Origin: Escherichia coli
Lineage (GTDB): Bacteria; Pseudomonadota; Gammaproteobacteria; Enterobacterales; Enterobacteriaceae
DNA length: 64,000 nt
NCBI RefSeq assembly: GCF_003334765.1
Contig: NZ_QOWT01000010.1
Strand: one strand, 5' to 3'
Below, in pieces: positions 34,408-37,084 of the stretch. Position 1 is the first letter of the stretch. Every line of letters starts with the position of its first letter. A program made the position numbers and the translations under genes. The notes beneath the pieces were generated by a model. It was not told where the DNA came from. It ran no database searches and saw only the letters and a list, made by a program, of their open reading frames with translations.

Positions 34408-34415
34408 GGTTAGCG

Positions 34416-34444
34416 GCCCTCTTCGTGGGAAGAGGGCTATTTTG
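34416..34444. terminator. Bidirectional hairpin terminator between ggt and yrhB
   Basis: GCCCTCTTC-GTGG-GAAGAGGGC perfect 9-bp stem followed by TATTTTG; lies between convergent genes. Confidence 0.7.
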
Positions 34445-34729
34445 TCAGGGCAAGCCGAAGGTAGCCTTTTTTATTTCGTAATCCTGTAGATATTCTTCCA
34501 GCGGTTTTGCCGTTCCCAGAGAATGAATTTCACCACTGTCTTTATCAATAATAAAAGGTGCGTTACCAGCTAAGCGCGCGGCCTCATCTCCAGTTTCGAG
34601 AAATTCTCGTGCTTCGAAACAGAAATACCAGCCCTGGCTAAAGCGTCCATGTAGAGTAATGACGACCGGGAGATCTGCATCATCAAGGTAATGGTTCGCT
34701 TTCGCGAATGCGTCGTGATAAGTAATCAT
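34445..34729 (-). CDS. yrhB: Small cytoplasmic protein YrhB
   Basis: 94-aa ORF recognised as YrhB; last gene of the yhhZ-yrhA-yrhB same-strand cluster. Confidence 0.8.
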   Translation of the reverse strand: MITYHDAFAKANHYLDDADLPVVITLHGRFSQGWYFCFEAREFLETGDEAARLAGNAPFIIDKDSGEIHSLGTAKPLEEYLQDYEIKKATFGLP

Positions 34730-35178
34730 AATTATAATAAATATTATTGTTGAGTGTTATATTATTATTCCTGTGTGATACATTGAGCAAAGACGCGTTC
34801 ATCTTCGTCAAAGATATTATTAAATGCTGGTTTTGAAAAAAGTTCATCGGATAAGATATAGTCACGAAATAAGTATCTGCTAATATTTTATGATTTCTTT
34901 TTCAGAACGTCGAACGGGATTTTCTTATTTAAGATATCAGAATCTTATGATTCGGGTAAAATTCTAAATAAATCAACATGTCATTAAAATCATCATAGCC
35001 ATTAGCTATTTCGGCTAAAATAGAGACTACATGTCTTCGGTCCATCTCACTTAAGGAGTGTAGTTCCGTTGTAAGTTTTTCCATAGCTTGCACTGCTAAA
35101 TTTCGAACAAGGAATTTTCTGCTGGTAATCTCTAAAAAGATGGCATGGTTTACAATGATTTTTGTTTCCTTTTGATTA

Positions 35179-35673
35179 TTATGAACAACTGTCCATGATT
35201 TCGTTTAAGAATGAAGAGAAATCACTAAACGAACTGAATATATTTTCTGTGCCAATATTATCTCTAATTTCAAAAAAGTTACTTTTAATGTCATAAGTAA
35301 ATATTGAAATGCTATAATCCCCGATCACTAACCGTTCTTGTAGATCAGGGTTTATGAAATCATCATTATTTCTATAAAATTCATTTACGGCAAAAAGGTT
35401 TTTAACTGAAGGTTCTGGAATCGAGAGGCTAAATAATCGTAATCCATTAACTTCGAATCCATCCATTGCTCTTAAAAAAGTAAGATAATCAGGTTGATTC
35501 TTAAAAAGAATACTAACTTCATTACATAACTTCTCCAGGCAATTAGTTGAATTAGAATTAAATTCTATTTGGATTATACTTTCAATAAATGATTCCTTGA
35601 GCGGTGCTTCAAATGGATAGTCTAAATCATTCATCATTTTTATTAATTTATTTATTTGGGTTTTAGTCATCAT
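35179..35673 (-). CDS. yrhA: Putative immunity protein for the upstream Hcp-nuclease toxin (yrhA-like, intact)
   Basis: 164-aa acidic ORF with no signal peptide or TM segment, AT-rich codon usage; start overlaps the yhhZ stop by 4 bp (ATGA). Function is inferred from gene context only. Confidence 0.7.
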   Translation of the reverse strand: MMTKTQINKLIKMMNDLDYPFEAPLKESFIESIIQIEFNSNSTNCLEKLCNEVSILFKNQPDYLTFLRAMDGFEVNGLRLFSLSIPEPSVKNLFAVNEFYRNNDDFINPDLQERLVIGDYSISIFTYDIKSNFFEIRDNIGTENIFSSFSDFSSFLNEIMDSCS

Positions 35674-36848
35674 TTTGTGTGGTCCATAATATTTTTCATG
35701 GGAGGATAAATTGAGCCAGATGGAATGGCCCAGGGAGTGATTTTGCTTTCACCTACTAATATTCCCTTAGCTATTCGTGATTGCATGTTAGTAAAAACTT
35801 TATGATATGGTTCGTTTTCGATTAATACTAAATTTTCGAAATCATTAGTACCACCATCATCTAGAGATAGTTTATGGTGAACATTATAATTTAGAGGAAC
35901 ATTGCCCTTTCTCATTCTTAAAAGGTCTTCGGCGTTGAATCTTCCAGATGCTTCGGAGGTTTTTGCAAGTTTGATAAGAAAATTTTTTCTTACAGTTTTA
36001 TTAAACTCCTTTCGTAAGTTAGCTAAGTCTTTTGAAGGTCTCTTAATGTATATTATTTCTATTATGTCTATACCATCAAGAAGTTTTTGTTGACCTCTAA
36101 GTTTGCCTAAGTAACTATTTATTTCTGTATATGTATCAACATTAGAACGCTTTGTTAAAAGAATAGATGCTGTTGCTATCGCTATGCCCGCTGTTTTTTC
36201 ATTTAGTATTTGATCATAGCCTTTTATTGCATCTCCACCCAGTTTTTCCGCAGTATCTCTGAATCCTTCAATGTTCCCATTGTATACGCCACCAGCAGCA
36301 AGTAGCCTGCCAATAGCTTTGCTGTTTAACGTTTTGAAACGATTATTTGTTTGGTTTTTTGAATTTGGTAAAAACAAACGGTTATAATTTTCAGGGAGTG
36401 CCAAATAGCTGAACTCGGTATTTGCGATAAGATGTTGACAGAGGATAAATTCATAACTAATAGTTATTGTTTCTGTATCCAGTTGGTTTTCAATGATCTG
36501 GTGATGAATAGCCGATAAAAAAGCGCCTCTTAGTTGTATATAATAATACTTTTCCAATCTACCAAATCTATTTATTCGATAGAAGTCAAATCCCATAAAT
36601 AATTGTTCATTATTGTTAATGGAATTAATAAATAATGGAGTGCTTTTATCAATTAATTTACAAAATGTTATACCATGGAACTGTGAACCAAGCCCCGTAT
36701 TATTAATATTATTTAAGAGTGAGAATGTAAATATTTCATCCTCATGCCCGCTCTGCCAACGATTACCTGTAGACTCAGAAGTCCCACAACCTGCGGAGAT
36801 GCTTCCTTGTTGTTCTCCCGTTACTGTCAGGTAAACAATATTACTCAT
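35670..36848 (-). CDS. yhhZ: Hcp-domain protein fused to a C-terminal HNH-type nuclease-like toxin domain
   Basis: 392 aa. N-terminal about 150 aa has Hcp (T6SS tube) family character (MSNIVYLTVTGEQQGSISAG...HEDEIFTFSL...FDFYRI...). C-terminus carries an HNH-like motif NYNVHHKLSLDDGGTNDFENLVLIENEPYH. AT-rich gene. Confidence 0.85.
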   Translation of the reverse strand: MSNIVYLTVTGEQQGSISAGCGTSESTGNRWQSGHEDEIFTFSLLNNINNTGLGSQFHGITFCKLIDKSTPLFINSINNNEQLFMGFDFYRINRFGRLEKYYYIQLRGAFLSAIHHQIIENQLDTETITISYEFILCQHLIANTEFSYLALPENYNRLFLPNSKNQTNNRFKTLNSKAIGRLLAAGGVYNGNIEGFRDTAEKLGGDAIKGYDQILNEKTAGIAIATASILLTKRSNVDTYTEINSYLGKLRGQQKLLDGIDIIEIIYIKRPSKDLANLRKEFNKTVRKNFLIKLAKTSEASGRFNAEDLLRMRKGNVPLNYNVHHKLSLDDGGTNDFENLVLIENEPYHKVFTNMQSRIAKGILVGESKITPWAIPSGSIYPPMKNIMDHTK

Positions 36849-37084
36849 CCCTGAAAAGTCCTTTTATGGCATGCTATTTTATCAATGGCAATATTATGCT
36901 TGTTAATTGTTATTTATTTACTCCAGGAAATTGTAGGCGTATATATTAAAAAATAAAATATTACACTTTAGGAAGTAATTATGAGTTAAATCTCAATATA
37001 TGTATTGGGCAAATAAATACCTTAAAGGAAGGTATGTCGATTTTGAATGACACCCTTTTTCCATCTCAGAAAAAGGGCACTATC

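Follow-up and report, generated by a model that had tools for sequence, protein, structure and literature searches.

The AT-rich ggt-yhhY interval of Escherichia coli as a probable Hcp-extension-toxin locus with orphan immunity genes

An AT-rich islet of 2677 bp lies between ggt and yhhY, at positions 34408-37084 of a 64-kb stretch of Escherichia coli DNA (contig NZ_QOWT01000010.1), which is referred to here as the window. The islet is, with a probability of about 85%, a type VI secretion system (T6SS) Hcp-extension-toxin locus, that is, a polymorphic toxin system that ends in a series of orphan immunity genes. The product of its largest gene, yhhZ, is predicted to begin with an Hcp/TssD tube domain, which a conserved linker joins to an HNH DNase of the colicin type. 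Domain architecture, toxin-immunity linkage, remnants, synteny and allele frequencies were all determined in this analysis. The coordinates were cross-checked on the annotated genome of strain C288, which is 100% identical and whose annotation places yhhZ, yrhA, yrhD and yrhB, all on the minus strand, at matching coordinates. The first gene list for the window had missed yrhD and a pseudogene, both located between yrhA and yrhB. The features of the islet are the following.

34408-34444, plus strand: intrinsic terminator of ggt, with a hairpin at 34415-34438 and a T-tract (terminator scan); conserved left border.
34445-34729, minus strand: yrhB, 94 amino acids, predicted Imm35-family immunity protein (Pfam).
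34768-34926, minus strand: pseudogene, putative remnant of an 86-amino-acid immunity gene (tblastn; in-frame stop).
34929-35177, minus strand: 5'-truncated homolog of a Salmonella 84-amino-acid gene (tblastn; 83 open codons).
34929-35084, minus strand: yrhD as annotated by RefSeq, the last 51 codons of the 83-codon frame.
35179-35673, minus strand: yrhA, 164 amino acids, predicted cognate immunity protein (ETI1; NCBIfam).
35670-36848, minus strand: yhhZ, 392 amino acids, Hcp with a predicted C-terminal extension toxin of the Hcp-ET1 type (TIGR03344, Pfam, PDB).
36408-36848, minus strand: Hcp/TssD tube domain, YhhZ residues 1-147 (profile matches).
36234-36407, minus strand: conserved linker, YhhZ residues 148-205 (homolog comparison).
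35673-36233, minus strand: exchangeable module, YhhZ residues 206-392, a hydrophobic stretch and the predicted HNH DNase.
35802-35879, minus strand: HNH (His-Me finger) core, H324-H325...N335...N339...H349 (conservation and predicted structure).
36849-37084, minus strand: AT-rich region 5' of yhhZ, presumed to hold the yhhZ promoter or promoters (composition).
37053-37077, within the preceding region: hairpin beside the yhhY stop (read from the sequence).

The N-terminal domain of YhhZ (residues 1-147) matches TIGR03344 with 118 bits (curated cutoff 58.9), Pfam T6SS_HCP (PF05638) at 2.5e-11 and the PDB structure of Hcp3 (3he1) at 2.3e-11. In an alignment of 21 homologs H324, H325, N335 and N339 are invariant and H349 is nearly so. 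The AlphaFold model of residues 244-386 has predicted local distance difference test (pLDDT) values of 85-96, and the top 20 PDB matches of the toxin end in Foldseek are all colicin E7/E9 or pyocin S2/AP41 DNase domains (probability 0.97-1.0, best E 1.8e-3, about 80 columns, root-mean-square deviation about 2.2-4.4 Å, mostly 2.2-3 Å). YhhZ shares with these bacteriocins the predicted fold, the HH..N..N..H core and the organization of a non-specific DNase toxin with a tightly linked immunity protein. It differs from them in sequence (16-28% identity in the toxin end) and in route, as colicins and pyocins enter by receptor-mediated import and proteins of the YhhZ type by T6SS; their Im proteins (about 85 amino acids, four-helix) are unrelated to YrhA (164 amino acids, α+β). 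An N-terminal tube domain, a C-terminal HNH core and an adjacent immunity gene that co-varies with it, the features by which Hcp-extension toxins (Hcp-ETs) are recognized, are all found for YhhZ and its locus. Sequences resembling the C-terminal part occur in other settings as well: hypothetical proteins of the Bacillus phages SPbeta, SPR and Goe12/13 (H101-H107) are 44-45% identical to YhhZ residues ~244-385, and two PHROG families without known function match residues 168-382 at 1e-56.

YhhZ of the window has the same RefSeq accession as the K-12 protein (WP_000065894.1) and is one amino acid different from YhhZ of the O104:H4 outbreak isolate HUSEC2011; YrhA is two amino acids different from that of an O104:H4 outbreak isolate. 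Full-length Hcp-HNH proteins of E. coli form a single cluster in the protein database. According to reviews of Ma et al. 2017 (Virulence 8:1189), Hcp-ET1, which occurs in O104:H4 and STEC004, is an orphan effector combining Hcp with an HNH DNase; it is delivered by T6SS2 and neutralized by ETI1 (PMC6730261, PMC6099711, PMC9990079, bioRxiv 2024.03.05.583533). They describe five Hcp-ET clans, one of them with a papain-like peptidase. Judged by its sequence, yhhZ of the islet is almost certainly the same gene as Hcp-ET1. The islet resembles the Hcp-ET1/ETI1 pair (O104:H4 C227-11, 55989 and STEC004) in combining Hcp, HNH DNase and a downstream immunity gene, and in being an orphan outside T6SS clusters; it differs in a genome context that is K-12-like and probably T6SS-less, in which the cassette may be undeliverable. 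Earlier work counted YhhZ among the 'evolved Hcps' and regarded its HNH domain as degenerate (Blondel et al. 2009, PMC2907695); within the His-Me finger superfamily it makes up group 32 (PMC5714182).

The start of yrhA and the end of yhhZ share 4 bp. YrhA of the window matches the NCBIfam YrhA family (NF038335) with 122 bits, the cutoff being 55; a Pfam search gave no match. A gene for a YrhA-family protein of 164-168 amino acids lies directly 3' of the HNH toxin in all six contexts (the window, L007, L008, L022, L024 and L025). UniRef labels some members of the family SMI1/KNR4; a check for SUKH domains gave a weak SUKH_6 match (0.023) in one of 16 YrhA homologs, and a PDB profile search with YrhA gave chance matches only.

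The 431 homologs of YhhZ have a constant N-terminus with variable C-terminal ends. Full-length homologs, at 61-73% identity, are found in Citrobacter, while in many others the match, at 60-76% identity, stops after the first 55-68% of the query. The alternative ends are PF15644 (Tox-PL1/Gln_amidase), PF21814 (DUF6883), PF11429 (colicin D) or carry no recognized domain. Two C. freundii alleles are 92.6% identical over residues 1-229 and unrelated beyond, and the junction falls in the conserved linker (...GRLLAAGGVYNGNIEGFR.TAEKLGG...), at about residues 205-230. Each toxin end adjoins its own gene: Tox-PL1 an Imm35 gene (three contexts), the 402/417-residue type an 86/101-residue gene (three), the 370-residue type an 84-residue gene (two) and Colicin_D a Colicin_immun gene. 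One toxin end thus goes with one partner gene, which is the signature of cognate immunity. The linker and HNH end also occur on non-Hcp N-termini (P0097, P0130) in three settings, an Enterobacter cloacae chromosome (L022), a Salmonella IncHI2A plasmid (L025) and a Pantoea MOBF plasmid (L024), with a YrhA-family gene next to them each time. The plasmid form (L024 4635-6215, L025 4638-6215) is a protein of about 353 residues whose linker and HNH end are 47% identical, followed by the YrhA-family gene; on the IncHI2A plasmid it adjoins traG/trhH, and many Enterobacter plasmids carry such genes also.

A relative of the window allele with another toxin end is on an Escherichia-like metagenome contig (L020). 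Between yhhX and position 36192 (about yhhZ codon 219) it matches the window at 98.5% identity, then holds a Tox-PL1 end, and rejoins the window at 34733, the start of yrhB, with 92.4% identity. Because the match runs to 36192 and resumes at 34733, the window allele looks like an Hcp-Tox-PL1/YrhB ancestor whose toxin end was replaced by the HNH end, yrhA and two older immunity genes. The flanks of the contig are unequally similar to the window, 92.4% on the ggt side and 98.5% on the yhhX-yhhY side. The ggt gene itself (32665-34407) is unusually divergent and mosaic, being 95.0% identical to that of Nissle 1917 with a 9-bp length difference, and this mosaicism suggests possible recombination breakpoints at the islet.

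The tail downstream of yrhA consists of what would be orphan immunity genes. YrhB matches Pfam Imm35 at 4.6e-23 and is 71-74% identical to Citrobacter Imm35 proteins. Imm35 has been described as the partner of Tox-PL1 (Zhang et al. 2012, PMC3482391); the neighborhood of Imm35 and Hcp-Tox-PL1 was predicted from that work and then confirmed in relatives, where an Hcp-Tox-PL1 (PF15644) gene is followed by Imm35 at the same site (L018, L019 and L020). The Tox-PL1 toxin end is absent from the window itself, where YrhB is thus a predicted orphan Imm35 immunity protein. At 34929-35177, tblastn with the Salmonella protein Se_84 (residues 8-80) finds 40% identity (E 3e-13) in one frame with no stop; the start of this remnant has been lost beneath the 3' end of yrhA. 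Elsewhere the 84-residue gene lies downstream of the 370-residue Hcp-toxin in Salmonella, and yrhD is, as its frame indicates, the putative 3' part of an immunity gene remnant of this type. At 34768-34926, Cf2_86 gives 49% identity over residues 2-54 (E 4e-13) with a stop codon in the alignment, and Cr_101 gives E 2e-11; elsewhere the 86-residue immunity gene is the partner of the 402/417-residue Citrobacter Hcp-toxins. No orphan toxin-end fragments were detected in the window. In Nissle 1917 (L006), yrhD (6488-6643) and yhhY (8643-9131) are annotated as pseudogenes with internal stops.

Hcp-toxin genes are present at the same site in other genera. They lie between yhhY and ggt in C. koseri (L007), C. 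freundii (L008, L012 and L013), C. portucalensis (L018 and L019) and a C. rodentium-type strain (L016), and between yhhX and ggt in Salmonella enterica (L010 and L011). These cassettes are AT-rich as well, with 37-43% GC against 54-57% in their flanks. Their Hcp N-terminal part is 67-74% identical to the window in DNA and their flanking genes are 77-83% identical, which suggests that the Hcp N-terminus may have co-diverged with ggt and yhhY across the Enterobacteriaceae. The ggt terminator hairpin is kept in the O157 allele of E. coli, in L020, in C. koseri, C. freundii and C. portucalensis and in Salmonella, and it differs or is not present in the empty E. coli allele and in L016. The homologous genes in the same interval argue that the locus is old and that the toxin end is exchanged together with its immunity gene. 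We infer from these comparisons that the Hcp-toxin locus at ggt-yhhY predates the split of Escherichia, Citrobacter and Salmonella, and that its AT-richness would be a maintained property of the locus and not a mark of recent arrival.

Further genes and fragments lie in the interval in these genera. At 8448-8949, 3' of the Hcp-toxin and the 84-residue gene, Salmonella L010 has an unannotated Imm35-like remnant, 70% identical to yrhB in DNA, and also a partial second Hcp fragment, with an insertion sequence (IS; Transposase_mut) after them; these are further fossils of turnover. A gene for a 294-residue protein lies between yhhY and the Hcp-toxin in C. freundii and C. portucalensis (L008 6845-7729, L012 5845-6729, L018 4848-5732); E. 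coli, C. koseri and Salmonella lack it. The protein has a signal-peptide-like N-terminus and a sub-cutoff match to the PA3715 family.

Taken as a mechanism, and following the literature on the ortholog, the Hcp domain of YhhZ would become part of the Hcp tube where the cell has a compatible T6SS, sheath contraction would drive the tube into a neighboring bacterium, and the C-terminal colicin-like HNH DNase would degrade the DNA of the victim. YrhA, translationally coupled just downstream, would bind and neutralize the nuclease in the producer and its kin. T6SS2-dependent delivery, DNase toxicity and neutralization by ETI1 are taken here from published work. The locus would evolve by swapping the last ~190 codons and the immunity gene through recombination anchored in the conserved Hcp-linker region, and each swap would strand the prior immunity gene downstream. 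Read 5' to 3' on the minus strand, the order would then be Hcp-HNH, YrhA, the truncated 84-residue-type gene (yrhD), the 86-residue-type pseudogene and YrhB. Some E. coli lineages would later have deleted the locus, leaving the empty and yrhB-only alleles, or replaced it, as in O157. In K-12-like backgrounds without T6SS the cassette would be undeliverable, H-NS-bound and nearly silent. The order of the replacement events and any present-day protection by YrhB are points that we infer.

Among 5426 complete E. coli genomes, at least 80% of the islet, taken as the full cassette, is present in 3757, and 911 have an empty allele with a 60-bp junction. An allele with a DUF4225 gene is present in 343 genomes, every listed case being O157:H7 or a related strain, and a yrhB-only allele in 233; all members of these two groups are at least 99% identical. 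In the remaining ~180 the interval is IS-disrupted, partial or of another kind. There are thus at least four alleles, and presence, absence and replacement, which the original prediction had named as things to look for, all occur. Nor is the interval identical throughout the Enterobacteriaceae, as its alleles differ in E. coli, Citrobacter and Salmonella. The Tox-PL1 end of L020 has no megablast match in the 5426 genomes. The O157:H7 filling (L003 1501-3355) is 1855 bp long with 31.8% GC, and contains a gene for a 303-residue DUF4225 protein and ~730 bp without an annotated gene; it gave no PADLOC, NCBIfam or PHROG match and has no similarity to the proteins of the Hcp cassette. Derivation of the O157 allele by deletion from a larger ancestral locus is unsupported, since the DUF4225 protein, the 294-residue C. 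freundii protein and the cassette proteins are mutually unrelated.

The cassette is found in phylogroup A (K-12), in O104:H4 and in phylogroup B2 (Nissle 1917, 96.5% identity). Between the window and Nissle 1917, synonymous differences per site (pS) are 0.05-0.07 in the islet genes and 0.10-0.24 in the flanks, and ratios of non-synonymous to synonymous differences (pN/pS) are 0.2-0.9 in the islet and 0.02-0.09 in the flanks, all from small counts. These ratios fit a weaker constraint on the islet than on its flanks. Across E. coli phylogroups, pN/pS is 0.38 in the Hcp domain and 0.23 in the toxin end, again from small counts. The K-12 islet is identical to that of the window except for an IS1E copy in yrhA (at 35281-35292), which shortens yrhA to 138 codons and leaves yhhZ intact; the window has no IS1.

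The composition of the islet sets it clearly apart from the surrounding DNA, as the original prediction had claimed. Its GC content is 33.6%, against 53.5% for the remainder of the window; 1120 windows of the same length outside the islet range from 48.6 to 59.5% (mean 53.5, standard deviation 2.1), giving the islet a z of -9.6. Seven of the 13 A/T-only runs of 12 or more bases in the 64 kb fall inside it, in agreement with the long runs that had been noted. The claim of deviating codon usage also holds, with GC at third codon positions (GC3) of 0.242 in yrhA, 0.260 in yhhZ, 0.327 in yrhD and 0.400 in yrhB, against 0.626 ± 0.051 (minimum 0.543) in 49 other long open reading frames (ORFs) of the window. 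Both edges are steep: GC is down to ~30% by roughly 300 bp past the ggt stop, and on the right returns to normal within roughly 150 bp inside yhhY. The boundaries given earlier are accordingly sharp, except that the GC-rich terminator of ggt takes up the first 37 bp, which lie outside the variable DNA. Composition within the islet is uneven. Positions 34730-37084 are at 28-35% GC throughout, whereas yrhB, at 45.6%, is clearly less AT-rich than the other parts. The 236 bp 5' of yhhZ (36849-37084), which had been singled out as especially AT-rich, have 29.7% GC (minimum 23-24% in 100-bp windows within 36884-37033); this is below the islet mean but not below yrhA (28.5%).

From such a composition it had been concluded that yhhZ-yrhA-yrhB is a single foreign unit, recently received from an AT-rich donor and silenced by H-NS. 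We consider this unlikely. The strongly atypical GC and GC3, the absence of the block from ~27% of complete E. coli genomes, the H-NS binding and foreign origin given by earlier surveys, the lower synonymous divergence between phylogroups A and B2 than in the flanks, and the occurrence of the HNH/YrhA pair on conjugative plasmids all speak for it. Recent acquisition in E. coli is contradicted, however, by the homologous Hcp-toxin gene in the same interval of Citrobacter and Salmonella, whose Hcp N-terminal halves diverge from E. coli about as much as the flanking genes do, and by the terminator, which in occupied alleles is of the outgroup type and in the empty allele is not. The idea of one cassette fails on yrhB, which differs in composition, occurs alone in 233 genomes and is cognate to Tox-PL1, and on the DNA between yrhA and yrhB, which consists of remnants of two further immunity genes; a distinct history of yrhB and two remnants indicate stepwise assembly. 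Integrase or recombinase ORFs are absent, as are tRNA genes within 28000-44000 and flanking direct or inverted repeats beyond short AT-rich chance matches, and an integrase-mediated genomic island was rejected on these grounds. What stands of the proposed horizontal acquisition is the foreign-like composition and the polymorphic interval; unity and recency do not. The horizontally mobile part is the C-terminal toxin with its immunity gene.

Several points weigh against the reading of the islet as an Hcp-extension-toxin locus. The Pfam HNH match of the YhhZ C-terminus is weak (0.013), no Foldseek E-value of the toxin end is under 1e-3, and the AlphaFold model of YrhA is poor (pLDDT 44.5). The assignment of YhhZ to Hcp-ET1, though strong, draws on strain background, near-identity and reviews rather than on the primary paper. 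There are no T6SS genes in the 64-kb window. K-12 and B strains have no T6SS (PMC6730261), and as the islet is identical to that of K-12 apart from IS1, delivery may be impossible in the source genome. In K-12 yrhA is split and yhhZ intact, so that either YhhZ is silent, its native levels do no harm, or the 138-residue fragment still neutralizes it. Finally, synonymous divergence from the B2 strain is only about half as high in the islet as in the flanking genes (small counts), and the cassette may therefore have spread between phylogroups by homologous recombination through its flanks.

The same observations could mean that the cassette now works independently of T6SS, as an addiction or stress module or through co-opted parts such as a YrhB chaperone or a biofilm-induced yhhZ. 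In favor of this are the intact cassettes of T6SS-less K-12-like strains, the chaperone-like activity reported for YrhB, a stable protein (Ahn 2012, as cited in PMC10723866), the reported biofilm induction of yhhZ, which Blondel et al. judged not to be linked to T6SS (PMC2907695), and the Hcp-less linker-HNH/YrhA pairs on IncHI2A and MOBF plasmids. The Hcp domain, though, scores well over the curated TssD cutoff, the pN/pS values given above for the tube domain and the toxin end are below 1 (on small counts), and reviews report T6SS2-dependent delivery of the O104/STEC004 protein. An addiction module is at odds with K-12, where yrhA could be disrupted without loss of yhhZ. On balance T6SS-independent function has only an outside chance of being correct. 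An anti-phage defense or mobile-element pair, for instance an HNH nuclease effector paired with a sensor or inhibitor, is very improbable. In its favor are the HNH nuclease with a small gene beside it at a variable, AT-rich hot spot, the PHROG matches over the linker and HNH region and the HNH-domain homologs in SPbeta-like phages. But SPbeta-type prophages are known carriers of polymorphic toxins, PADLOC models matched none of eight proteins tested (YhhZ, YrhA, YrhB and proteins of neighboring alleles among them), YhhZ begins with a genuine tube domain of T6SS, and Imm35 and YrhA, the families of the partner genes, are immunity families of polymorphic toxins.

A more specific version of the Hcp-extension-toxin reading, for which the odds are slightly less than even, is that the islet preserves, in layers, at least four toxin-end swaps that followed one another at one ancient site, with YrhB a working orphan immunity protein. 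If so, YrhB would protect ~75% of E. coli, including the 233 'immunity-only' genomes, against Hcp-Tox-PL1 attackers, which would be Citrobacter or other Escherichia; yrhD would be the 3' piece of an immunity gene for a toxin that Salmonella still carries; and selection would retain immunity genes at the site after the weapon is lost. The Hcp-ET1/ETI1 identity, the foreign look and the H-NS binding of the cassette are already known from the literature. What may be new is that Escherichia, Citrobacter and Salmonella share ggt-yhhY as a conserved site of Hcp-toxin genes, that yrhD and the adjacent non-coding DNA may be immunity relics for toxin types persisting in Salmonella and Citrobacter, and that YrhB may be the orphan partner of an Hcp-Tox-PL1 allele of the same site. 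Several 'y-genes' of K-12 would thereby gain a function, as an inter-bacterial weapon, its own antidote and antidotes to rival weapons. Strong AT-richness would here mark a long-resident, modularly recombining conflict locus and not a recent insertion. For annotation, yrhD would become an immunity-gene remnant and YrhB an Imm35 immunity protein, and the interval, with four common alleles in E. coli, could be used as a typing locus.

These results conform to the standard evolution of polymorphic toxins and leave the picture of T6SS effectors unchanged. As in Rhs and CdiA toxins (PMC3482391), a conserved delivery N-terminus is combined with hypervariable C-terminal toxins and a cognate immunity gene next to them, displaced immunity genes accumulate downstream, and the DNA is AT-rich. 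The carrier is different, a short Hcp instead of a long Rhs or filamentous stalk, and the islet keeps immunity remnants only, unlike the toxin-end/immunity arrays of those systems. Usp (Hcp-ET3-4) of uropathogenic E. coli, also one of the 'evolved Hcps' (PMC2907695), likewise joins an Hcp N-terminus to a nuclease bacteriocin-like end and several immunity genes. Its toxin domains are those of pyocin S3 and colicin DNases, it is at another locus, and its additional immunity genes are copies of the cognate gene, while those of the islet would be relics for other toxin types.

H-NS occupancy of the islet is known from published data. Two 'promoter islands' inside K-12 yhhZ and yrhA are predicted to be foreign (GIST, Nakamura 2004, Lawrence & Ochman 1998) and are H-NS-bound in the chromatin immunoprecipitation (ChIP-chip) data of Kahramanoglou and Oshima (PMC3661553 Table 1). 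This agrees with the earlier suggestion of a link to H-NS, although that suggestion was made for the 236 bp 5' of yhhZ in particular and the published sites lie within the two genes. HNS is also flagged beside the insB6/yrhD interval (PMC3946193), and PMC12428005 refers to promoters of yhhZ. The 3' fragment of yrhA ranks among the least expressed genes of K-12. H-NS-motif-like 10-mers number 3.8 per kb in the islet and 1.2 per kb elsewhere. Promoter-like sites in a scan of the islet show no excess (14, against 12.6 ± 2.7 in shuffles), so that this simple consensus scan did not reproduce the 'promoter island' idea, and no sigma-70-like consensus site was found on the minus strand of the 236 bp 5' of yhhZ. 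An Rfam scan of 34000-37600 gave only a sub-threshold small nucleolar RNA match (31 bits, gathering score 45), which was taken as chance in AT-rich DNA. Spontaneous Δ-yhhZ-yrhA deletions have been reported in a study of TopoI mutants.

The sole other low-GC patch of the 64 kb is at 21500-21930, between panM and livK; it has ~35% GC and A/T runs, and is presumably the livK promoter and leader and not an islet. At positions 1-296 (minus strand) lies part of the 5' end of rhsB, within which the window begins; rhsB is another T6SS-associated polymorphic toxin element ~34 kb from the islet (C288 annotation). C. koseri has a second Hcp-toxin hot spot, between tamB/GGACT-family ytfP and ppa (L014 and L015, genes at 4942-8360), which contains an Hcp-ColicinD gene with Colicin_immun and, in one strain, also a tandem Hcp-DUF6883 gene with DUF4926.

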